A stretch of DNA of 64,000 nucleotides from positions 1 through 64,000 of IMG/VR virus record IMGVR_UViG_3300005656_000005; one strand, written 5' to 3'. The stretch is from a virus (taxonomy: Duplodnaviria > Caudoviricetes). Positions 1-54,765 of this stretch are shown piece after piece (the stretch's first letter is position 1; the number at the start of each line of letters is the position of its first letter). The notes under the pieces were generated by a model. That model did no database searches, had not been told where the DNA came from, and was given only the letters and a program-made list of their open reading frames with translations. The position numbers were made by a program, and so were the translations under genes.

Positions 1-220
1 GGTATTGGGTTTTATACTGTTTATGATCTTGGTTTGCTTCCAGGTTGGGCAGGTCTGGCAAAGTTTGGGAGTTATGATATAGGCAAAAATTAATTGTCAG
101 TATAGTTTATAGGGGCAAATATTGGGTTTCTTCCTTTATAGGATATATCCTGCCGTAATAGGGTTTATTTGAAATTTGGGCAAATTATTGGTTTAGGGGT
201 TTTACTTATCCTTAATGTTT

Positions 221-290
221 ACCGTTCATGTAGCTATTTTGCCGTTCATCACAATACGCTTGCAATGGCTTATCCGGTGGCCTATCTTCA
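221..290 (+). promoter_or_regulatory. Early promoter element copy 1
   Basis: CCGTTCA at 222 and 242, CTTGCA at 259, TAtcTTCA at 283. Confidence 0.7.
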
Positions 291-330
291 CAGTGTTATT
301 AATTATTATTTCATCTTAAAATTTACCACA

Positions 331-552
331 ATGCAAAATTCTAAATGGTTTTACTCATTACAGGAAAAAATTGAAGCTAAAATAGCTATTAGTTACGAAA
401 CGGCAGGTTATTGTAATTATCAGGTAATTAACCCAGATGTTTATATTGAATGTTGGCCGGTTATTCGTAAAGCAGATCAAAAAAGCAGCGTTATAATAGT
501 AACAGCACACAGGCAAACAGGTTTTATATTTATTTATGAATATCAGTATTAA
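331..552 (+). CDS. Hypothetical early protein (73 aa; start moved from 169 to 331)
   Basis: ATG at 331 follows the recurrent TTTACCACA motif and lies downstream of the promoter element. Confidence 0.65.
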   Translation: MQNSKWFYSLQEKIEAKIAISYETAGYCNYQVINPDVYIECWPVIRKADQKSSVIIVTAHRQTGFIFIYEYQY

Positions 553-554
553 AT

Positions 555-624
555 ACCGTTTAAACCTGTTTTTTACCGTTCATATAATACACAAGTAAAG
601 AACCAAAAAAGAACTATATTTTTA
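555..624 (+). promoter_or_regulatory. Early promoter element copy 2
   Basis: CCGTTTA at 556, CCGTTCA at 576, TAttTTTA at 617. Confidence 0.72.
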
Positions 625-658
625 ATTTATTATTTTATTCATTCAAAATTTTACCACA

Positions 659-1162
659 ATGACAAACTATTTTCAAAGCTGCAATACATTGCAGGAAGTA
701 AAAGACCTTTACCGCACACTTGCAAAGGAAAACCACCCAGATAAGGGAGGTAGTTTACAGGTAATGCAGGAAATTAACAACCAATATAGCCGGGCAATAT
801 CTACAATTGCCAAAGGTGGAAAGTTTACAGCAGCAGAAGCAGAAGCGGAAATATTACAGGCCGAAGCATATCAGGAAGCAGTTAACAAGGTTGTAAATTT
901 AGAAGGTTGCAAATTGGAGTTAATTGGTAGTTGGCTATGGATTACAGGAGATACAAAGCAGCATTGTAAAATATTAAATTCAGATCCGGCCCGCTTCAAT
1001 TGGGCCAAAAAGAAAACAGATATAACAGCCTGGTTTTTCAGAACCGCCGAATATAAGACAAGCAACAAAGGGCAAAAAATGAGCATTGAAGCAATACGCA
1101 ACAAGTACGGAAGCCAGACAATAAGCAGCACTATAAAACAAAATTATAAATTAACAGCTTAA
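659..1162 (+). CDS. J-domain (DnaJ-like) protein
   Basis: N-terminal YRTLAKENHPDKGG with HPD motif and helical J-domain pattern; C-terminal GSWLWITG...W domain typical of mobile-element J proteins. Confidence 0.8.
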   Translation: MTNYFQSCNTLQEVKDLYRTLAKENHPDKGGSLQVMQEINNQYSRAISTIAKGGKFTAAEAEAEILQAEAYQEAVNKVVNLEGCKLELIGSWLWITGDTKQHCKILNSDPARFNWAKKKTDITAWFFRTAEYKTSNKGQKMSIEAIRNKYGSQTISSTIKQNYKLTA

Positions 1163-1172
1163 AAATACTACA

Positions 1173-1454
1173 ATGATAAGCAGCACAGTAAAAAGCGGAT
1201 ATATGACAATAGAACACGATCCAGAAAATGAAGCCACATTTTACACCATCCTAACAAATGAACTTTGTAAAAACAGGCATGGAGTAATTAACGGAGTAAT
1301 TGAAAAGCAGGACGATATATTTTACTGCTTAATTGTAGATGATTTTTGGCCCAATGACTTAAAAGAAAAGGAATTTAAGACACTGCAACAGGCCCAGGAA
1401 TTTACTTTGTCAGAACTAAACAAAATACAGCAACATTATTTAAATAAAAACTAA
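1173..1454 (+). CDS. Hypothetical protein
   Basis: 93-aa ORF in tightly packed operon. Confidence 0.65.
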   Translation: MISSTVKSGYMTIEHDPENEATFYTILTNELCKNRHGVINGVIEKQDDIFYCLIVDDFWPNDLKEKEFKTLQQAQEFTLSELNKIQQHYLNKN

Positions 1455-1465
1455 ATTTTACCACC

Positions 1466-1756
1466 ATGCAAAAGTTAATTATTTCAATTGGGACACTTGC
1501 AGCCTTACTATTATTAACCGGCCTTTATGCTTTAATTATGCAGCCTTACCAATCAGGAACCAACACAAGGCTATTTGCAGCCGGTTTAATTTCGGGCCTG
1601 ATCGTTACAGTAATATTTTTACTGCTGACTAAATACAGCCCGGTAAAGGCTAAGAAATTAAAATGTAATAACCGGCCCAAACTTTCAAAAATAACCGTTG
1701 AAATATACGGAGATGAAAAAGTATTAATAATTGATAACAAGATCATAAACCTTTAA
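1466..1756 (+). CDS. Small membrane protein (2 TM)
   Basis: Two hydrophobic stretches; TTTACCACC-ATG start context. Confidence 0.65.
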   Translation: MQKLIISIGTLAALLLLTGLYALIMQPYQSGTNTRLFAAGLISGLIVTVIFLLLTKYSPVKAKKLKCNNRPKLSKITVEIYGDEKVLIIDNKIINL

Positions 1757-1766
1757 AAAAACAGAT

Positions 1767-2369
1767 ATGAAAAATTATTCAGTTTATACAGCCAGATTAA
1801 CAGCAGTTAGTTATAATAACTATGTAGCCAGCTTTAAAGCAGAAAGCACAGAACACGCCAAAAATTATGTAAGCGGCCTGCATGAAATAGGCGGGTTAAA
1901 TTTTAACCTTTATTATTATATAATAGTTGAAGATAACACCGGCAAAATAGTTTGGAACCAACACGAACCAAAGTTTAAAATATGGATTAAGACACCAGGA
2001 GCAGACACCGCCGCCGAACTGTTAAAGATATTCAACAAGGCCCACACAATTTTAACAGCTTCAACCCTAAGAGCCGACCACCTAAGAAGGCAAGCCGAAC
2101 AAATAACCGCCAGAAGGTTTGGCCCGCCCAAAAATATTAATAAGTGGATTGAAGCCAGTAACAAAGCCGACAGCCTAAAAAGAGCAGCAGACAGAACCGA
2201 AAGCAGAGGCCGTAAAGTTTGGGCAGCAGTTACAGATTTTCAGGGTAAATATATCAATTGGAGAGAAACAACAAAGGACGAGCAGCCAATTTACAGCTTA
2301 TGGACAGCCGGGATAAGTTACGATAACAACCTAAAAGCAGCGCAAAAAATTGCAGGTATTACCGTTTAA
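1767..2369 (+). CDS. Hypothetical protein
   Basis: 200-aa ORF. Confidence 0.7.
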   Translation: MKNYSVYTARLTAVSYNNYVASFKAESTEHAKNYVSGLHEIGGLNFNLYYYIIVEDNTGKIVWNQHEPKFKIWIKTPGADTAAELLKIFNKAHTILTASTLRADHLRRQAEQITARRFGPPKNINKWIEASNKADSLKRAADRTESRGRKVWAAVTDFQGKYINWRETTKDEQPIYSLWTAGISYDNNLKAAQKIAGITV

Positions 2370-2431
2370 CCCTTAATTATTACCGTCCATCATATAGACA
2401 GGTAAAATGTAAAAACAACAAAGTACTTTTA
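2361..2431 (+). promoter_or_regulatory. Early promoter element copy 3
   Basis: CCGTTTA at 2362, CCGTCCA at 2383, TActTTTA at 2424. Confidence 0.72.
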
Positions 2432-2492
2432 TAATCTAATCAAAAACATTTGCAACCTGAATAAAAGCAAATTAAAATAAGCAGGTGAAAAG

Positions 2493-2999
2493 ATGACTAC
2501 ACTAACAATAAACCACAACAACGGCAACGCCACAAATTACCAACTAATTAATGCAGAAGATAAACCACTTTTGCCAATTGCTTACCACCAGGAAACAGCG
2601 CAGGAAGTTATTAACGCAATGGAAAGATGCAGGAAATCCAGAAGAAGAATAAAAATATATTTAGGAGATACAAAAACCGGCAGATGCTGGAATGAAGAAC
2701 ACGATATTTTTGGCTATATCGGATTAAGCAAAGGACACAAAGCCTACTTTCCTATATTGGTACATAATACCAGAAGTTACGGAGGCGGCAGCATCTTAGA
2801 TCATTGCATAGTTAAAATAAGAGAAGCGAAAGGAACACACACAATTTACAAAGCTGCAAATTTTCAGGAGCCAGTAATTGAAATAAAAGAGGGCAGCACA
2901 TTGCCAGAATATAGCCACGAAGTTTTTATAAATGGTGAATTATACAGCAGACATAAAAGCGAAAGAGCAGCCAAAATATTAAAAAATAAAATGCAGTAA
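2493..2999 (+). CDS. Conserved hypothetical phage protein
   Basis: GDTKTGRCW..EHD..GYIG...GG..ILD.CIVKI segment resembles a recurrent phage hypothetical family. Confidence 0.7.
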   Translation: MTTLTINHNNGNATNYQLINAEDKPLLPIAYHQETAQEVINAMERCRKSRRRIKIYLGDTKTGRCWNEEHDIFGYIGLSKGHKAYFPILVHNTRSYGGGSILDHCIVKIREAKGTHTIYKAANFQEPVIEIKEGSTLPEYSHEVFINGELYSRHKSERAAKILKNKMQ

Positions 3000-3030
3000 C
3001 CAATTAACCAACCTTTAAAATTATACCACA

Positions 3031-3477
3031 ATGCAAACACAATACCCCGTTATAAACTGGAGCAGAGCAGCAACAAGATGCAACTTTAATCTAACTGAAA
3101 GCATTGAATTTTTAAGCCTTGTAAGCACCCCACACGATGAAATTTGCACACAGGCCGGACATGATGAAGATTTACAAATAATGGAATGTACCGCACTAAT
3201 TAACCAACTAATAAGGGGAGCAGGACAGCCAGATCCAGGAGCCGAATTTTTTATAATTGAAAATACCGGGCATGAGTTTGGCCCATATTACGAAGCTGGA
3301 ATTTTTTATGTACCAACCCCGGAAGATCAGGAAGAAGAAAACGGCAGCGAAATTTACGCTATGGTAATTGAGCAGAATATACCGGACAAATGGGATAGTG
3401 AAGCATTGCAGGAACTAAGGAAAGCAGGACACCCGAACTACCAACCGGCTAAAGTTATAAGGTTAAAAACAGCTTAA
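3031..3477 (+). CDS. Acidic hypothetical protein
   Basis: 148-aa ORF with TACCACA-ATG start context. Confidence 0.7.
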   Translation: MQTQYPVINWSRAATRCNFNLTESIEFLSLVSTPHDEICTQAGHDEDLQIMECTALINQLIRGAGQPDPGAEFFIIENTGHEFGPYYEAGIFYVPTPEDQEEENGSEIYAMVIEQNIPDKWDSEALQELRKAGHPNYQPAKVIRLKTA

Positions 3478-3511
3478 AAAATCATTTTACCACAATCTAA
3501 ATAATACAGTT

Positions 3512-3703
3512 ATGACAACGATCAAAGCAAAAAAAGACCTTTACAATAATGGCAAATGCTTTACTAAAGGCAAAGAATATAAAACAGTAGCAGACCGGAC
3601 AATAAAAACAGAAGCCGGACTAATGGAAGCAATGGTAACTAATGACCAGGGAGAAGCGCACGTCATTGGATCATGGTGGAGAGATTTTAAAATAGTCAGT
3701 TAA
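3512..3703 (+). CDS. Hypothetical protein
   Basis: 63-aa ORF. Confidence 0.65.
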   Translation: MTTIKAKKDLYNNGKCFTKGKEYKTVADRTIKTEAGLMEAMVTNDQGEAHVIGSWWRDFKIVS

Positions 3704-3704
3704 T

Positions 3705-3774
3705 ACCGTTCATCATTTAATACAACCGTTCAACACAAACCACTTGCAGCAGTAAAAAACAAAGATTAGTTTTA
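3705..3774 (+). promoter_or_regulatory. Early promoter element copy 4
   Basis: CCGTTCA at 3706 and 3726, CTTGCA at 3743, TAgtTTTA at 3767. Confidence 0.72.
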
Positions 3775-3801
3775 ATATTATTTACCACAAAAACAAAAAT
3801 T

Positions 3802-4284
3802 ATGTTAATCAACAAAGACCACGCCCAGCACTTACTTGAACTTTACACCGTACAGGATGCAGAAAGTTACAAGACTAAAAACATTAAGGGAGCAATTGAA
3901 ACAGCAAAAAAACAGCTATTAAAAGAAGCCAGAGAGCAACTTTTATGGATCATTGAAGAACTGGAACCGGAAGAAGAAAAAAGATTAACGGCTGATTGGT
4001 TTGCTGATGAAATTGAAGAAGCAGAAAGAAAAGAGTTTACATCTTTTTTGGAAAAATGCAAACTTAATTTTAAGGAAGGTAACAACGCTTTAACCCAATG
4101 CAGCGAAAAGAACTATTACTACTTTTTAGAAGTATTGCCCCCAATATACATTAAAAACGGGTTTGCTTGTTCAGAACCTTACAGCCATACTATGACCGGC
4201 CCCGTTCATTTATGTTTTTATAAGAAAAACGAAGGGGTATTTTTTGCCAGATATGAAATTTTAACTAAATCAATAACAGCCTAA
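3802..4284 (+). CDS. Hypothetical protein with possible DUF1419-like C-terminal domain
   Basis: YYYFLEVLPP...FACSEPY motif recalled from DUF1419-like proteins. Confidence 0.5.
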   Translation: MLINKDHAQHLLELYTVQDAESYKTKNIKGAIETAKKQLLKEAREQLLWIIEELEPEEEKRLTADWFADEIEEAERKEFTSFLEKCKLNFKEGNNALTQCSEKNYYYFLEVLPPIYIKNGFACSEPYSHTMTGPVHLCFYKKNEGVFFARYEILTKSITA

Positions 4285-4296
4285 AATATTTTTAAA

Positions 4297-5232
4297 ATGG
4301 AAGCAACCGCACAACAACCAACCGCAACACATTTGCAGCATCTTTTAAGGGCAGCAATAAACGCCCACAGGGGAACAAGTTTTTCACCAGAGAAAAGAGG
4401 GGAGCAGTTAATAAAAGATTATGACGAGCAATTAACAGGCGACCTGGAACAGATCAAAGAAGCAAGCAGCGAAACAAAGGAAACCTACAAAGCCCGGTAT
4501 ATTAAATATCTTAATGCCTACTTGTCAGCCAGGAGCCGGATAATTAGCCCAATGATAAGCGGCCCGTCAAATTTTCCTACCAGAAGGATGCAGAAATATA
4601 ACGGCTGGGAAGATAACGCATACAAAGCATTTAGCGAATTTCGGGAAAAGGCATTAAAAGGAATTAAAAAACAGATCCAAAACGACAAGCCCGAAGAACA
4701 AAAGCAGGATGAAGCCTGGAAAAGTATTGAAAAAAGCATTTTAAGCAGCGCAGCAACTATAATAGCCATTGACAACGGCGAAAGCTGTTATACCAGATCA
4801 TTATTTGTAAACTCAATAACCGGCCTTATTAAACGTATGGCAGCAAACGGACAAACAGGCCACGTTAAAAAGGCAATTGAATTAATACGGTTACTAAATG
4901 GCAAATATGCAAAGCCGATCATTACCGAAAAGAACAGCATTTTTACCTTGTTGGAAGTAGCAGAAGCGGCAGCAGAAACCAAAAGAGATGAAGCCAACAT
5001 GGAAAACCAAATATTTGAATTTGAAGGCGGCGAAGTTGTTTTGAACTATGAAATTGACAGGGTACAAATTACCCACCACCAGAAGCCCACAAAGGAGCAT
5101 TTAAACGAACTAAAAGCAAAAGGCTTAAATACATTCAATTTCAGTTTTCAGAACGTAGCATGGCAGCGCAAAATTACCAGGGATGCAATTGCAGCAGCTT
5201 GCAGGATCACCGGCGCAGAGATACCATATTAA
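4297..5232 (+). CDS. Conserved mobile-element/phage hypothetical protein
   Basis: 311 aa; AHRGTSFSPEKRG and SPMISGPSNFP motifs seen in phage/ICE leading-region proteins. Confidence 0.7.
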   Translation: MEATAQQPTATHLQHLLRAAINAHRGTSFSPEKRGEQLIKDYDEQLTGDLEQIKEASSETKETYKARYIKYLNAYLSARSRIISPMISGPSNFPTRRMQKYNGWEDNAYKAFSEFREKALKGIKKQIQNDKPEEQKQDEAWKSIEKSILSSAATIIAIDNGESCYTRSLFVNSITGLIKRMAANGQTGHVKKAIELIRLLNGKYAKPIITEKNSIFTLLEVAEAAAETKRDEANMENQIFEFEGGEVVLNYEIDRVQITHHQKPTKEHLNELKAKGLNTFNFSFQNVAWQRKITRDAIAAACRITGAEIPY

Positions 5233-5511
5233 ACTTTGTATTGTGGTAAATACAAAAACGGGCATAGTTTATATTGACTGAACAAAGCCCCATATTTAAA
5301 AACATATTAACCATTTATTATAAACCTCAAAACTGAAACCAAAATGAAAACACAATTAGCAAACTTAAAAGCATGGTTTAAAATGTTCTTTGATCTATCC
5401 CATGCTAATTACAGTAACTTCTAAAAGCATGATGAAAAGAAACGGGAAGGGTAAACTAAATAGCATCTTCCCCTTATTAACCATTTAAACACTTTTTAAA
5501 ACTTAAATAAA

Positions 5512-5799
5512 ATGGACACAAAACAATTACCATACTGCACCGATAATGGACATGAGTACGAAGTTCATGTTAACCCTATGGATAATACAGCCCATGTACA
5601 TTGTAAAACGGAGGATAATACTGCTGATCCAATGGAATTAATAACTGAAAAGGATGTATTGGATATTATTGAGACAGCAAAAACATTTGGCATTAAAACC
5701 GTTATCCTGCATACAAATTACGGGGTTGCTATTCACAGCCATACCTTAAAAACTGCAAAGCGTTTCAATGGCTTTTATATTAACAAACTAATTAACTAA
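5512..5799 (+). CDS. Hypothetical protein
   Basis: 95-aa ORF. Confidence 0.6.
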   Translation: MDTKQLPYCTDNGHEYEVHVNPMDNTAHVHCKTEDNTADPMELITEKDVLDIIETAKTFGIKTVILHTNYGVAIHSHTLKTAKRFNGFYINKLIN

Positions 5800-5819
5800 C
5801 AAACTAAACTTAACAAACA

Positions 5820-6158
5820 ATGAAACAGATAACAACATTATTGCCTGAATATATTACTAACCTTATGGATAAGGCAAACGGATTAGGTGAAAACGAAATA
5901 TTGCAAACTGCATTTGGCCCAGAAGATAAGTATAAAATACAGAGGGGAGAAGATGGCTTTTTATTATCATCTAAGGGGAATTATTTTACTTCAAAATGGA
6001 GGGTTGAATTTATCTTTCAAGGTGGGAGCCAACTATTAAACAAACTAAAAGAACACCCGTATTATACATTTTATGCTAAAAATGTATTTAGTGGCAAAGA
6101 AGATGCCCACATGGATAATATAGGCAACTTTTGCAACTCATTTAAGAAACAAAATTAA
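5820..6158 (+). CDS. Hypothetical protein
   Basis: 112-aa ORF. Confidence 0.65.
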   Translation: MKQITTLLPEYITNLMDKANGLGENEILQTAFGPEDKYKIQRGEDGFLLSSKGNYFTSKWRVEFIFQGGSQLLNKLKEHPYYTFYAKNVFSGKEDAHMDNIGNFCNSFKKQN

Positions 6159-6182
6159 TCAAACTTTAAAATAAACAAAGCC

Positions 6183-6383
6183 ATGAAAAAATTCACAGTA
6201 TCAACAGTTACAACTTATGACAGTGATGATATGCTGTATTACACTAAAATAGGTACTAATGGTAAGGATATGCCATTGTACTGTATAGCAGCAGGTAAAA
6301 CAATTACAGAAAGCAGAACCAGGGCAGAGCAATTAGGGGAAATTCTAACAGCACATTTCAAAACCGAAACCATAAGCAAATGA
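6183..6383 (+). CDS. Hypothetical protein
   Basis: 66-aa ORF. Confidence 0.6.
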   Translation: MKKFTVSTVTTYDSDDMLYYTKIGTNGKDMPLYCIAAGKTITESRTRAEQLGEILTAHFKTETISK

Positions 6384-6547
6384 AAGCAATTAACACAGTA
6401 CTATACATGATACGGATATTCTTTGAGATGGCTTACTGTATGCTGGCTGCATTGCTCATTACATTGCCAACTTATTTACTGATATCAGTTATTTCATTCA
6501 TTCTTTACACACCTAAAACAAGACAGCAACAACATGAAAAAAATTAA
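6380..6547 (+). CDS. Small membrane protein, about 55 aa (not in ORF track)
   Basis: ATGA overlap with upstream stop; MKAINTVLYMIRIFFEMAYCMLAALLITLPTYLLISVISFILY; end coordinate approximate. Confidence 0.5.
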   Translation: MKAINTVLYMIRIFFEMAYCMLAALLITLPTYLLISVISFILYTPKTRQQQHEKN

Positions 6548-6800
6548 CACGCAACCAAAGGGAGAAAGGTTTTTCCTGACCGGCTTAACCTTAGTCATTA
6601 TCATTATTATCTTAATGGCTACATCTCAATCCTGTATGACTATTACAGGCACAGTATCAGCAGTAAATAACGATACCGTTACTGTAAATAAATACAGGTT
6701 TAAAGTATTTAACAATGTGCCAGTAGTGGGGCAAACCGTAACCTTTAAAGCTACCAAAAACCGCAAGAAAGTAAACTGTAAACACATTAAAAACAACTAA
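6534..6800 (+). CDS. Putative lipoprotein
   Basis: Basic N-terminus, hydrophobic stretch, then SQS-C lipobox-like site and a small beta-rich domain. Confidence 0.5.
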   Translation: MKKINTQPKGERFFLTGLTLVIIIIILMATSQSCMTITGTVSAVNNDTVTVNKYRFKVFNNVPVVGQTVTFKATKNRKKVNCKHIKNN

Positions 6801-6811
6801 ACCCAAAACTC

Positions 6812-7039
6812 ATGCCAACCAAAAATCGACAACCCAACAACTCCGGTATCCACGCCTACCTTGCAAATAAAAGGTACAGAGCAGAAGCAACGCTACGGAT
6901 TACCTGTGATGGTGAATGTTACTACATTGTAAATGGACATCATTTATCTGAAAATGATTTTAATGCTATGTACCCGCTTGAATTATTAAGACCAAATAAA
7001 AAAGGAAATACGATAGGACACAAACAACAAGTGATTTGA
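6812..7039 (+). CDS. Hypothetical protein
   Basis: 75-aa ORF. Confidence 0.6.
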   Translation: MPTKNRQPNNSGIHAYLANKRYRAEATLRITCDGECYYIVNGHHLSENDFNAMYPLELLRPNKKGNTIGHKQQVI

Positions 7040-7111
7040 TCGGGGATTGTTCAGGCATCCAAACTCAATACCTGTAAAGAACCAATTTTTATTAACTTCA
7101 AATTTAATTTT

Positions 7112-7519
7112 ATGCAAAAGCAACCGCAACATTTCTACATTGATGATTACTACATGACCAAAGCCGGGATAGTAGTAGAAGTAACAAAGTCAGGTATAAT
7201 GATACCCGTTACAATTCCAGAATTAGAGTTTGAATGGTTTTTACAAATGAATGAAAAACTAAATTGGGAGTACAGCCACACAGACGGCATACATGGAACA
7301 GGGAAAATGACTATGGAAGAATACTGGGCCACAGATAAAGCCGAAATCCATGCGGATCTGTACAGTTTCATCACCACCCACCCAATCAAAAATAAAGGCA
7401 CTGTATGGACTGACAGCACAAAGAGCCTTTCCCTGGCATTTGACCTGCACCTTGCAAAGAAACGCAACGTGATTAAATGTCCTGATCTGGAACCCGAAAA
7501 CGGAGCATTTTGCGATTAA
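7112..7519 (+). CDS. Hypothetical protein
   Basis: 135-aa ORF. Confidence 0.65.
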   Translation: MQKQPQHFYIDDYYMTKAGIVVEVTKSGIMIPVTIPELEFEWFLQMNEKLNWEYSHTDGIHGTGKMTMEEYWATDKAEIHADLYSFITTHPIKNKGTVWTDSTKSLSLAFDLHLAKKRNVIKCPDLEPENGAFCD

Positions 7520-7536
7520 CTTTAAAAACATTCAAA

Positions 7537-7713
7537 ATGAAACTTAACGAACCATACAAATCAAAGACCTCCATCCCTACAATACAGGCTGCTATTTATG
7601 GCTATGTAAAGTCAGGAGCAACTATAAAGCAAATAACAAAGGTGATCGGAGTTTCTGCATTAGATGTAGAAGCTGTTATTATCGAAAAAAAATTATCAGT
7701 TAAACCAAATTAA
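7537..7713 (+). CDS. Small hypothetical protein, possibly HTH
   Basis: ATG at 7537; GATIKQITKVIGVSALDV resembles a helix-turn-helix. Confidence 0.45.
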   Translation: MKLNEPYKSKTSIPTIQAAIYGYVKSGATIKQITKVIGVSALDVEAVIIEKKLSVKPN

Positions 7714-7724
7714 ATTTATCAATC

Positions 7725-7964
7725 ATGGACAACTTATTAGATCAAATCGTAAACATTAGTAAAGCCGGTGCATACGATATACTGGTAGAACAGGTAAAAG
7801 AACTGCAAGCCGAAAACAAAGCACTAAGGGAAGATAATAAACGGTTAGCCGATAACCATGCAAGTGTTACAGCATTAGCCCTTGAATTTGGTTATAAGCA
7901 ATGTGAGAAAGGAGATAACCTGGATGCAGCATTTTTAAACTACAGCAAAATTATTAAACCTTAA
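7725..7964 (+). CDS. Coiled-coil hypothetical protein
   Basis: Heptad-rich 79-aa ORF. Confidence 0.6.
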   Translation: MDNLLDQIVNISKAGAYDILVEQVKELQAENKALREDNKRLADNHASVTALALEFGYKQCEKGDNLDAAFLNYSKIIKP

Positions 7965-7977
7965 AACTATTACAATT

Positions 7978-8184
7978 ATGAAATTCAGATACACAATTAA
8001 CGAGCTGCAAAATACAAGCCACGAAAACTACATGAGCGATTTAAAATTGCTTCGCTCATTATGTAACGAAAGGAAGTCCACCTGTACAAATGTATATTCT
8101 CCTTTACATAAAAGATTACAGGCTTTAGAAAACACATTAAGCAATGCTATTGATAATAATAAAACTATTACTTTTAAACCATAA
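7978..8184 (+). CDS. Hypothetical protein
   Basis: 68-aa ORF. Confidence 0.6.
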   Translation: MKFRYTINELQNTSHENYMSDLKLLRSLCNERKSTCTNVYSPLHKRLQALENTLSNAIDNNKTITFKP

Positions 8185-8867: not shown

Positions 8868-8895
8868 AGCCCGGAGTAGTTACCGGGCTTTTTTT
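8868..8895 (+). terminator. Intrinsic terminator at convergence of early and late transcription
   Basis: AGCCCGG-agtagtta-CCGGGCT followed by a T run. Confidence 0.8.
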
Positions 8896-9349
8896 ATTTA
8901 CTTATTGGGGTAAAATATAATTTCACTTCTCTTTTTCTCCTGCCAATTATTTCTTTGGGCTTATTCCACATCATAAATGCGTTTTCAATGCTTTGATCTG
9001 ATGCCCTTGCATTAATCCTCCTTAGTAAAGTTGATTTTTTAAAAGCCTGTTGCCCTACATTGTATGTAAATGAAACTAAGGCATCAAATTGGTTTTGGTT
9101 TATATCATCCCTTGTGTTGGTATAGACTGTTAATTCAAACTGCCTTAATACCCATTTAAACAACTCCATAGCACGTTTTTCAGTTATTGGATGGTCAGTC
9201 ATTTTAACCCTGCTGCCATCTTCGTAAAATGTATTGCCTACTCCGATAGTGGGAATACCCACAGTATCCAAATAAGGCTTTAACCTTACACCTTCACTTT
9301 GCATTAAATGCTTTATACCATTTTCAGACATTGATTTTATTTCTGTCAT
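8894..9349 (-). CDS. Endolysin, phage lysozyme (GH24)
   Basis: EGVRLKPYLDTVGIPTIGVG with E-x8-D-x5-T triad; QNQFDALVSFTYNVG; GRRKREVKLY. Confidence 0.95.
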   Translation of the reverse strand: MTEIKSMSENGIKHLMQSEGVRLKPYLDTVGIPTIGVGNTFYEDGSRVKMTDHPITEKRAMELFKWVLRQFELTVYTNTRDDINQNQFDALVSFTYNVGQQAFKKSTLLRRINARASDQSIENAFMMWNKPKEIIGRRKREVKLYFTPISK

Positions 9350-11950: not shown

Positions 11951-14164
11951 TTAATTTATAATTTGATATTCTAAATAGCTTATGCCGCCAATGGCTGTTA
12001 TAGCCGATGCCGATATTTCGCTGGCAAACCTTACCTGCACATCACCGTTAGCCGATGGTAATATTTCGCCTTCAATTACACAACGGTTATTGGTTGTTAC
12101 TGAACTGGCGTTACTGGCGGATGGCAGGTTATAAGCACCCAATGTGTTTATTGTCGCCGCTGCTGCCGTTGTGTTGTATGTACTTCGGTAGCTTATATCT
12201 GTAACTGCCGGGCCGTTCACCGTCCAGCGGCTGCCGGTTGTTGTGGCTGCTGAATTATATACCACCACCACCTTGAAACTGTACCGTGTACCTGCAACCA
12301 CCGGAAATGTTAATCCGGTAACGTCTGCAAGGGTATTGGCTGATGCGTTATTGTTGATGACGTTATCAGGGAGCCAAACTCTTGTTACCCCGGTTACGTT
12401 TGGTATTGCCGACCGTATTGCTGCGGCTGTGTCATCCAATGCCTGCTGTGTTATTCCTCCACCGCCAACTATTCCTGTAAGTGCTGAACCATCCCCGTAA
12501 TATTTTACAGCGTGAACGTCTTTAAACCTGTTGCCTGCACTTCCCAAATCAATAACACCGTTACCACCATAATCTTTAAACACCGTTGAATTAAGAACCA
12601 TCTGAACCCCGTTTACCCCGTAATATAAATTACCTCCCTGCGACCAAAAATAAGCATTGGAATTACCTGCTGCCTGTAAAGAGATAACACCGGCTGTACC
12701 TGATGTTTTAAATTGTGCCAATGTACCGTTCACAGTACTTTCCATTGTAAACGGATGGATAATATTTGCCACGTCTGAAACCCCAATACCGAAATTACCG
12801 CCGTAAACATTTGTCTTGCCGCTGAATGTCATTGTTCCCTGATTGCGGAATATTTGACCGAATGATGAACCCGCACCACGTACACCGGCAAATATTATTG
12901 AACGGGTATTTAATGATGGCATTGGCTGATCTCCTTCCACATAAGGGCTGTACCATTGTGAAGTACCTGATGGATGTGTTGACGCAAATGCCCCGCCTGA
13001 CCAATAATGTTTTGCGTTATCCCACGGCGTTGCTGCCTGTGCTTCAACCACCGTCCAGTATGTAGGAAATAAATCGGGTTGCTTATTAATACCACTGCCA
13101 TCATCATGCAGGAAAGTTGCTGTGTAATACCCACCGTTAAAACTTACTGTGGTGGCTGTCCCTGCTATGGATGCGTTACTATTTGCAGCGAATGAATTTG
13201 AATAAAAGTTATTACCTAAAAATCCGTTATCCAATATTCCCCACCGTTTGTTTTGCATGGCATCGCAGTTATGAAATGTTATGTAGTTGGCATCACATCC
13301 GTTAGTACGAAAGCCATGCAGGGCAAAATTAACTTTGCAGTTGGTTACCAATGAGAAATCAACACTACCGAATATAGGGTTGTTTGTGCTATCCCCCCCT
13401 GCACACCCTTCTAAATTTATCCCTACACCTGATGCCAATGGGATATATATATTATCTAAGATAACCTTGCAGCGAATGTCAATCAAATGCTTGTTGCTGT
13501 CTATTGGTTCAATGCTGTATGTATTTTTTAATTGCAGATTTCTAATTTCAGAAGTAAAATCATATTGGTATTCATGTATGGCAATGCCTGTTGTATTCCA
13601 CGGGAAAGTAAGTATAGCTGATGGCAAAGTATATACTCCACCACCACCTTTAATCTTTATGCTTTCAGTAAAAAATAAAGTATATGTAACTGCATATTCA
13701 CCTGCCGGAAAATAAAGCCATTCAAAACTTTGTCTGTGTGATAACAGATAATTCTTTGCGGCTGTTATTGCGTTCCAGTTCTCAATACCTGTACGGGCTG
13801 CACCTGCACCGTACCAACGTACATCCATATTAACACCCGCCTGCCGCTTCCATTTATTGTTATTGGCATCTGCGAATATCATTCCGTTATCTGCTGCATC
13901 ATTGCCCGAATAAGGAAAGAATGTACCGCCCCGAATTGTGTCGTTTATAAACAATGCTGTTGCTGCGCCGTTGTAACTTCCAATGGCTTCAATGGTTGAT
14001 AGTGTTGCTGATGATGCGCTGCCGGATGCTTGGTTGCTGATCCGGGTAGAATCACCACCTATTTTCAGCCATAATTCTGTTCCGTTAATTACAAGTATTT
14101 TTGGTATTGTGTCCTGCGCTGTTAAGCACAACGGGAACAAAAGAATTATTAAGGCTGCTTTCAT
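11951..14164 (-). CDS. Tailspike/depolymerase-like beta-helix protein with signal peptide
   Basis: Start at 14164 gives MKAALIILLFPLCLTA|QDTI; DVRWYGA...LYFPAGEY is the pectate-lyase-3-like beta-helix entry motif. Confidence 0.75.
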   Translation of the reverse strand: MKAALIILLFPLCLTAQDTIPKILVINGTELWLKIGGDSTRISNQASGSASSATLSTIEAIGSYNGAATALFINDTIRGGTFFPYSGNDAADNGMIFADANNNKWKRQAGVNMDVRWYGAGAARTGIENWNAITAAKNYLLSHRQSFEWLYFPAGEYAVTYTLFFTESIKIKGGGGVYTLPSAILTFPWNTTGIAIHEYQYDFTSEIRNLQLKNTYSIEPIDSNKHLIDIRCKVILDNIYIPLASGVGINLEGCAGGDSTNNPIFGSVDFSLVTNCKVNFALHGFRTNGCDANYITFHNCDAMQNKRWGILDNGFLGNNFYSNSFAANSNASIAGTATTVSFNGGYYTATFLHDDGSGINKQPDLFPTYWTVVEAQAATPWDNAKHYWSGGAFASTHPSGTSQWYSPYVEGDQPMPSLNTRSIIFAGVRGAGSSFGQIFRNQGTMTFSGKTNVYGGNFGIGVSDVANIIHPFTMESTVNGTLAQFKTSGTAGVISLQAAGNSNAYFWSQGGNLYYGVNGVQMVLNSTVFKDYGGNGVIDLGSAGNRFKDVHAVKYYGDGSALTGIVGGGGITQQALDDTAAAIRSAIPNVTGVTRVWLPDNVINNNASANTLADVTGLTFPVVAGTRYSFKVVVVYNSAATTTGSRWTVNGPAVTDISYRSTYNTTAAAATINTLGAYNLPSASNASSVTTNNRCVIEGEILPSANGDVQVRFASEISASAITAIGGISYLEYQIIN

Positions 14165-54214: not shown

Positions 54215-54397
54215 ATGACAGATTGCGAATTACTCCAAATGTTAGCAGACGGTTATACCGTAAAAGAAATCTTCAATGAAAAAGGTATCAATAAAAGAAC
54301 CTTAGAAAAGAGAATACTTATTCTAAGAAAAAGGTGTGATGCCGATACGGTTACAGAATTAGTAGTTAAATATTTCAGATTAAAATTAATAGAATAA
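54215..54397 (+). CDS. LuxR/GerE-type stand-alone HTH regulator
   Basis: LLQMLADGYTVKEI...INKRTLEKRILILRKR...TVTELV; only + strand gene in the late region. Confidence 0.8.
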   Translation: MTDCELLQMLADGYTVKEIFNEKGINKRTLEKRILILRKRCDADTVTELVVKYFRLKLIE

Positions 54398-54423: not shown

Positions 54424-54765
54424 TTAATTCTGCAACTTAGTCAACCACCCTTTTTTATTCTCTTTTATTTCTTCTTTAAGGTTAGATTCTTTTTCAGGTG
54501 GTGCAAATCCCATTTCAATTAATACTTCCTCTGTCTGAATTTCTACGTCCTGTTTTTCTGCTATCTTTTTTTTAAGATATTTCATTAATGGCAATTCCCA
54601 TCTTGGAGGTAAAGGCCGTTTTGTATTTTCCTGCAACCCTCTTAATAAAACACTTCTACCTATGCCCACTTCTTTTTCAATTCTAAAAACAGGGATTCCG
54701 CTTTCAGAAACTAATTGTGAAATCAATGGAATGTTTGCAGGTTTCTTTTTTTTAGTCTTTTCCAT
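54424..54765 (-). CDS. Putative XRE-like HTH protein
   Basis: LVSESGIPVFRIEKEVGIGRSVL resembles an HTH. Confidence 0.5.
   Translation of the reverse strand: MEKTKKKKPANIPLISQLVSESGIPVFRIEKEVGIGRSVLLRGLQENTKRPLPPRWELPLMKYLKKKIAEKQDVEIQTEEVLIEMGFAPPEKESNLKEEIKENKKGWLTKLQN

Follow-up and report, generated by a model that had tools for sequence, protein, structure and literature searches.

The stretch analysed here (the window) comprises bases 1-64000 of the 77,238-bp virus record IMGVR_UViG_3300005656_000005, whose source is an uncultured 77-kb phage of Bacteroidota. Four intergenic regions of its left-end gene block, here called P1 to P4, each carry two directly repeated boxes similar to the binding sites of LytTR response regulators, followed at a fixed distance by an octamer similar to the -7 promoter element of Bacteroidota. 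The same boxes recur in phages that are otherwise unrelated and next to LytTR genes in bacterial chromosomes, and searches of the phage itself turned up no LytTR gene. P1 to P4 are probably host sigma-A promoters whose activator is a LytTR response regulator of the host, bound at about -49 and -70. Because the promoters carry putative sites for a regulator that the phage does not encode, the probable early genes are likely to be switched on via a host sensing pathway.

The CCGTYYA pairs (CCGTTCA, CCGTTTA or CCGTCCA) have box starts at 222/242, 556/576, 2362/2383 and 3706/3726. The pattern CCGTYYA-N12-16-CCGTYYA is matched four times in the window, each time on the + strand, and 100 dinucleotide-preserving shuffles give 0.00 matches. 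A pattern search of the whole 77,238-bp genome reveals no further CCGTYYA pairs, and a looser, mismatch-tolerant scan adds no pair to the same four. The conserved box exceeds seven bases and is 9-11 nt long, ACCGTTCAT(CA), with ACCGTTCATCA as the motif form. The period of the boxes is 20, 20, 21 and 20 bp for P1 to P4, and this leaves 11-12 nt between the 9-mers. The octamers TATCTTCA at 283, TATTTTTA at 617, TACTTTTA at 2424 and TAGTTTTA at 3767 each start exactly 41 bp after the start of the second box. A TTG is present at 260-262 in P1 and at 3744-3746 in P4, 20 nt before the TA of the octamer, and in copies 2 and 3 its position is occupied by GTAAA. It should be noted that an initial annotation of this DNA had described the box and octamer coordinates, the 41-bp offset and the placement of TTG and GTAAA; on rereading of the sequence every one is right.

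The similarity between the four copies extends beyond the boxes. In a gap-free alignment on box 2, 11 columns in the region +7..+74 are identical, compared with a mean of 2.9 under random shifts (P ~0.0002), and the identical columns include TA-n-T-TT-n-A at +41. P1 to P4 fill the sole long intergenic gaps (~100-120 bp) of the rightward block, and each starts 3-6 bp past, or overlaps, the stop codon of the preceding gene.

All elements of the four regions are on the + strand. In P1 the distal LytTR-type box (ACCGTTCAT) is at 221..229 and the proximal box (GCCGTTCATCA) at 241..251, with centres at ~-70 and ~-49 from the predicted start; the -33-like TTGCA is at 260..264, 20 nt before the -7-like element TATCTTCA (283..290), the predicted start is at ~295, and the ATG of the first gene at 331. 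In P2 the distal box (ACCGTTTAA, 555..563) is found 3 bp past the stop of gene 331-552 and is followed by the proximal box (ACCGTTCATAT, 575..585), the -7-like element TATTTTTA (617..624), a predicted start at ~629 and an ATG at 659. The distal box of P3 (ACCGTTTAA, 2361..2369) ends with the stop codon of gene 1767-2369, which makes up the final three positions of the box; the proximal box (ACCGTCCATCA, 2382..2392) has the 21-bp period, and the -7-like element TACTTTTA (2424..2431) precedes a predicted start at ~2436 and an ATG at 2493. P4 begins 2 bp past the stop of gene 3512-3703 with the distal box (ACCGTTCAT, 3705..3713), and continues with the proximal box (ACCGTTCAACA, 3725..3735), the -33-like TTGCA (3744..3748), the -7-like element TAGTTTTA (3767..3774), a predicted start at ~3779 and an ATG at 3802. 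Single boxes occur elsewhere in the window: five CCGTYYA boxes cluster on the + strand at 12213-13051, inside a leftward gene for a 748-aa fibre protein. They do not form 20-21 bp pairs and probably arise as a side effect of the sequence that encodes the protein.

In Flavobacterium, the sigma-A element TAnnTTTG spans -12 to -5 (PMC9723704). The phage octamers keep seven of the eight positions of TAnnTTTG, with A as the last base in all four and C at position 7 in one copy. The -33 element (consensus TTTG, ~19-21 nt upstream) may be represented by TTG with a 20-nt gap in P1 and P4; TTG is absent in P2 and P3. With the -7 element placed at -12 to -5, i.e., with the start set 12 nt after its TA, the predicted starts are at ~295, 629, 2436 and 3779, the box centres are at ~-49 and -70, and the predicted leaders are 23-57 nt long.

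Support for this assignment comes from other phages. IMG/VR was searched for the composite box-spacer-box-N33-35-octamer and, besides chance matches within genes, six AT-rich intergenic composites were found in other phage contigs. The records behind five of these six contigs were rescanned with the box pair alone; further pairs were obtained, and those that had not been selected for the octamer hold canonical TAGATTTG or TAAATTTG at +40 to +42. Among AT-rich pairs of phage and bacterial origin, TAnnTTY(G/A) is present at +39..+42 in 15 of 39, where ~0.7 would be expected, with a sharp peak at +40/+41, and many of these elements are canonical TAnnTTTG; this count includes only pairs not chosen for the octamer, and the five octamer-preselected sites are left out. 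Because canonical TAnnTTTG recurs at the same offset in relatives, the octamer is taken to be the Bacteroidota -7 element. Thus the proposal in the initial annotation that these are promoters of the Bacteroidota type is supported, but its emphasis on the terminal A as a distinctive feature of the octamer is not, as relatives have both G and A.

Other promoter types were considered, sigma-54 and ECF-sigma on account of TTGCA and CGT. A sigma-54 promoter (GG-N10-GC at -24/-12) was rejected, as no GG could be seen by eye 10-11 nt before TTGCA, and so were an ECF-sigma promoter (AAC-N16-17-CGT) and an arrangement with box 1 as -35 and box 2 as -10, as the two boxes are too far apart to serve as -35 and -10. 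A sigma-70 consensus scan gave a number of sites not above that of shuffles. A regular-expression search for TTTG-N17-21-TAnnTTTG across the genome gave matches mostly in genes and no useful map of other promoters.

P1 to P4 might also be promoters for a phage RNA polymerase that is packaged in the virion, as in crAss-like phages, given that the early genes of the crAss-like phage phi14:2 are transcribed by the virion polymerase gp66 (bioRxiv 10.1101/2020.03.07.982082). However, the early transcripts of phi14:2 have no common upstream motif (bioRxiv 10.1101/2020.03.07.982082), and the sites described here have a -7 element of the host type and are also found ahead of host genes. In addition, a virion polymerase of this type would be a large virion protein with a DFDxD catalytic motif, and a DxDxD motif is present in none of the six largest proteins of the phage (639-2335 aa), large virion and ejected proteins included. 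A polymerase of this kind is therefore very improbable as the reader of P1 to P4.

Important is the likeness of the boxes to known LytTR sites. The sites of AlgR are CCGTTCGTC and CCGTTTGTC (PMC4064291), and the phage box has 8 of 9 bases in common with CCGTTCGTC, with one base different. LytTR regulators bind direct repeats of 8-13 bp that are ~12 bp apart, and the exact spacing is critical (PMC4064291); elsewhere the repeats are given as 9-11 nt and the spacers as 11-13 nt (PMC4847170). The YehT/BtsR site of the yjiY promoter consists of GCCGCTCA, ACCGCTTA and ACCACTCA at a period of 20-21 bp (PMC4847170). AgrA repeats are found just upstream of its own target promoters, likewise named P2 and P3, which have suboptimal -35/-10 spacing (PMC4227749).

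The phage sites have this layout, with two direct repeats at each of the four sites and spacers of 11-12 nt, and with two or three boxes in the relatives. Given the predicted start, the box centres at ~-49 and -70 would fall within the LytTR range of ~-40 to -80, just upstream of the -35 region. In the wider set of sites, box 2 often runs on as TCACAAT. The BtsR motif is ACC(G/A)CT(C/T)A with a 13-bp spacer, the sole support for which is the oligonucleotide printed in PMC4847170, and 7 of 8 bases of the phage box are those of the BtsR-type ACCGCTYA read from it. Boxes separated by two helical turns had been taken in the initial annotation as a sign of a dimeric or tandem activator, and the spacing does fit an activator bound in tandem.

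The box pair was also searched for in one genome per prokaryote species, and 102 loci (761 kb) were obtained. Many of these are chance matches in genes or in heptad-repeat genes. The AT-rich bacterial pairs stem not only from Bacteroidota but also from such groups as Clostridia, Spirochaetia and Gammaproteobacteria, and the sites in Clostridia and Spirochaetia display a -35-like TTGAAA or TTGCAG at +18, which is the same offset as that of TTGCA in P1 and P4. According to a locally built LytTR profile, 15 of the 102 loci contain a LytTR gene, which in 8 of them is <=300 bp from the site. In five Bacteroidota genomes used as background there are 5-21 LytTR genes per 2.7-4.9 Mb, or ~1 per 256 kb, and at this density chance would give <=3 loci with a LytTR gene and ~0.5 with an adjacent one. 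Pfam searches confirm the LytTR domains and the arrangement of the genes. In loci L130 and L118 a histidine kinase gene (PF06580) comes first, followed by a response regulator with LytTR domain, the boxes and the target gene. In L119 and L104 the kinase and the regulator belong to one operon, and the boxes precede it.

Three to five box pairs with common flanks are found in single bacterial genomes, namely in Maribellus bins (L104, L120, L137, L146 and L151) and in genome G055 (L192, L197 and L198) of a sample of 301 genomes from the class of one motif-carrying Bacteroidota genome. The pairs in these multi-pair genomes precede a LytTR response regulator, an ECF sigma factor and uncharacterised genes. 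They would be candidate LytTR regulons in Bacteroidota.

The presence of the composite before chromosomal genes also bears on a role of the boxes in replication or packaging, as iterons or end-recognition sites, instead of in transcription. The first pair is just 100 bp inside the 120-bp terminal repeat of the linear genome, as such a role would have it. Yet the right end has no copy, every pair is oriented as the downstream genes are, the distance to the promoter element is fixed, and the same composite precedes chromosomal genes. A replication or packaging function of the boxes is thus highly unlikely.

Several points weigh against activation by a host LytTR regulator. The last base of all four octamers is A where the consensus has G, and in one octamer position 7 is C. 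In the 301 genomes the bare box pair has 22 matches versus 16 for a reversed control, with 6 of the 16 control matches in one genome, and a LytTR gene is present in just 1 of the 22 three-kb loci of this sample. With so weak an enrichment and one locus with LytTR, the case rests on context rather than on counts. LytTR regulators are said to have no common consensus (PMC4847170), and the likeness to AlgR may thus overstate the specificity of the match. Finally, a small divergent phage protein of another fold might bind the boxes.

Such a protein, phage-encoded, possibly delivered with the virion and not of the LytTR fold, would both bind the boxes and activate the promoters. The phage has many small proteins without a family match and also large ejected proteins, and the first promoters of infection cannot await a phage gene product, which would suggest virion delivery. 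Against this, the identical box and geometry occur in phages that have no protein family in common, and box pairs are found directly beside LytTR regulator genes in bacterial chromosomes. Moreover the candidate helix-turn-helix proteins named in the initial annotation have no significant match to a DNA-binding domain: Pfam gives no match for the open reading frames (ORFs) 7510-7713 and 54424-54765, and for 54215-54397 it gives only GerE, below the curated cut-off. Activation by a phage protein of this sort is considered unlikely.

A host regulator is the simplest source of the box-binding activity. A search with PF04397 (LytTR) in six frames of the whole phage genome found nothing even at E up to 1, and the local LytTR profile found nothing in any of the fetched box-carrying phage loci, including the complete genomes G001 (62.9 kb) and G002 (61.1 kb). 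The box-carrying phages have almost no proteins in common; their large terminases are 20-23% identical, and no family is common to all. The initial annotation had left the activator as either phage-encoded, possibly virion-delivered, or a hijacked host factor. The latter is favoured by the boxes beside bacterial LytTR genes, and the former is disfavoured by the six-frame searches, which detect no LytTR domain here or in the other box-carrying phage DNA.

Relatives were also collected via the early proteins 659-1162 and 2493-2999 (L005-L015), and these have neither box pairs nor other recurrent tandem 6-mers. One of them, contig L011, has a 60%-identical homologue of gene 2493 (168 aa), the gene that follows P3. 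In L011 a complete TTTG-N20-TAnnTTTA promoter takes the place of the boxes, and the leaders of the two genes are identical at 46 of 47 bases (window 2443-2489; L011 1770-1815). Thus the boxes appear as a swappable add-on to an ordinary promoter, because L011 has a near-identical leader and a full promoter but no boxes. The comparison fits a role of the boxes in substituting for a missing -33 contact.

These data also bear on whether the boxes are shut-off operators, at which a LytTR or other protein would repress or time-limit early transcription from core promoters that work unaided. P1 and P4 have the -33-like TTG and might fire alone. PlnD is a LytTR protein that represses. AgrA also represses, at bsaA (PMC4227749). 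However, P2 and P3 have no -33 element, and the box-free homologue in L011 has a full TTTG -33 instead. In addition, predicted box centres at ~-49/-70 upstream of the core promoter are the activator geometry of AgrA, ComE and PlnC. Repression through the boxes is thus rather improbable, and activation would be the function that accords with their position.

The leader of gene 2493 has features of its own. It holds ATTTGC-N13-GCAAAT and also AACCUG, which is able to pair with a Shine-Dalgarno-like CAGGUG immediately upstream of the start codon; the fold is of modest strength, with z = -2.0 and -1.1. The leader may be a translational control element.

Sequences between and after the boxes are partly conserved in other phages. 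The spacer AGCTATTTT between the boxes is partly conserved between window 221-260 and L018, L031 and G003 7657, and GGTAAAA..ATGTAAA after box 2 between window 2383-2431 and L017 5269. This suggests that promoter cassettes may move by recombination among phages that share almost no genes. Three phage sites (L019 ~1098-1130, L023 on the - strand at 2929, and L044 1850) have an inverted copy of box 2, TGAACGG or TGGACGG, 15-17 nt after box 2. In two of the three the inverted copy is followed by a T-run, and a terminator-like hairpin is formed between box 2 and the -7 element. The inverted copy could be a third, inverted LytTR site, as is RB3 of algD, or an attenuator.

In the mechanism proposed, the primary-sigma RNA polymerase of the host would read P1 to P4 via the Bacteroidota -7 element TAnnTTYA, aided in two of the four by a -33-like TTG. 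A LytTR-family response regulator of the host, and not a phage protein, would bind both boxes on one face of the DNA. The bound regulator would bend the DNA and recruit or position the polymerase, and in this way compensate for the weak or absent -33 element. P1 to P4 would drive the entire 8.5-kb rightward block beside the left terminal repeat, which from its position and gene content probably represents the early programme. In that case early expression would hinge on the state of a host two-component pathway. A more far-reaching version, which is put forward tentatively and is rather doubtful, is that this virulent-looking phage conditions its whole early programme on a host LytS/LytTR-type signal, for example nutrient or envelope state, and perhaps senses the membrane disturbance caused by entry of its own DNA before committing, with the cassette circulating among unrelated Bacteroidota phages as a portable module.

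The record has exact 120-bp inverted terminal repeats at both ends, and a full-length linear genome is therefore probable. The phage is found in many activated-sludge metagenomes, and no RNA data set is listed as containing bases 1-4300. Contigs of four other activated-sludge runs are identical to bases 1-4300 wherever they cover them, and because of this lack of variation they do not allow selection on the boxes to be judged. The only relatives retrieved with the large terminase are ~23% identical and come from podophages of Flavobacterium, Cellulophaga and Tenacibaculum. A blastn search with bases 1-8000 against 50,697 phage records gave no match, and no tRNA genes that might hint at the host are present in the phage.

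The rightward block presumably served by P1 to P4 (331..8804, + strand) consists of ~25 small genes and starts just inside the left terminal repeat. Its genes have almost no family matches. A G+C-rich hairpin with a T-run (8868..8899, + strand) closes the block where it meets the leftward genes, and no terminator-like sites were found between P1 and P4 in the block. The first gene after P2, 659-1162, encodes 167 aa with a weak J-domain (DnaJ) match at residues 10-39 (E 5e-4, below the curated cut-off), and its product may be a phage co-chaperone. A near-fixed TTTACCAC(A/C)ATG is found directly at start codons at window 322-333, 650-661, 1457-1468 and 3022-3033, with variants of this start context at 1162-1175, 3486 and 3781. 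It puts A at -3 and -6, positions at which A is a Kozak-like positive determinant in Flavobacterium (PMC6847099). AACCAC-rich leaders fill the intergenic gaps of the relative L011 too.

Beyond the terminal repeats (window 1-220; G000 77019-77238), GGCAAATTATTGG occurs at both genome ends, counted from the end at base 179 or 180, and GGGTTT repeats are present at similar distances. These shared motifs resemble signals for end recognition or replication in a linear genome, perhaps a protein-primed one. Inward from the right end, at G000 ~76920-76960, three TTAGCGTA repeats with 10-12 bp spacing precede a leftward RecA-like gene, and the repeat module there therefore differs from the LytTR-type boxes of the left end.

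LytTR-dependent promoters are textbook knowledge in Firmicutes and Proteobacteria. Phage-encoded agr genes and LytTR proteins have also been reported (PMC11945551). In literature searches, neither a phage early block driven by host-LytTR sites nor LytTR promoters in Bacteroidota were found. If activation by a host LytTR regulator is correct, infection depends on the signalling state of the host, both here and in several unrelated sludge and aquatic phages, which is relevant to when these phages are able to kill the cells they infect. The defined motif, ACCGTTCATCA twice with the start of the second box 41 bp before TAnnTTTG, could be used to find the regulons of uncharacterised Bacteroidota LytTR regulators, and it might help to connect uncultured phages with their hosts.

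Among the systems known, AlgR at RB1-RB3 of algD and ABS1 of algC in P. aeruginosa (PMC4064291) is close in sequence, as the 9-bp cores are near-identical, CCGTTCGTC/CCGTTTGTC compared with CCGTTCATC/CCGTTTA in the phage. AlgR has a LytTR domain, and several of its sites are needed for full activation. However, AlgR sites are often far upstream and irregularly spaced, whereas the phage repeats are strictly periodic, at 20-21 bp, and always equally far from the promoter, and the phylum and the sigma factor differ as well. BtsR (YehT) at yjiY/btsT and YpdB at yhjX of E. coli (PMC4847170, PMC5552118) have ACCGCTYA-type direct repeats with a 20-21 bp period, and in these systems a LytS/LytTR two-component regulator activates a sigma-70-type promoter. 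The BtsR signal in E. coli is pyruvate. BtsR sites differ from the phage box at core position 5, which is C instead of T, and their target is a chromosomal transporter gene instead of a phage gene block.

AgrA at its P2/P3 promoters, ComE, PlnC/PlnD and VirR of Firmicutes (PMC4227749, PMC4064291) have a weak -35 directly preceded by a pair of imperfect 9-bp direct repeats, which are separated by 12-13 bp; spacing is critical, and the DNA is bent. Unlike the phage, which carries sites without a regulator gene, these AgrA-type circuits are self-regulating and serve quorum sensing. The box sequence of these Firmicutes promoters is of the ACAGTTAAG type, which differs from the phage box. The Bacteroidota sigma-A promoter (-33 TTTG, -7 TAnnTTTG; PMC9723704) is matched by TAnnTTY(A) at the expected position, and by TTG 20 nt upstream in two copies. 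The phage promoters depart from it in the last base, A and not G, in the two copies without a -33 element, and in the added upstream activator module. With respect to the use of a host regulator, CtrA boxes in phages of Alphaproteobacteria are similar, in that they equip phage promoters with binding sites for a response regulator that is encoded by the host and not by the phage. They differ in the regulator family and in the host phylum, and here the sites are found at every promoter of the presumed early block.

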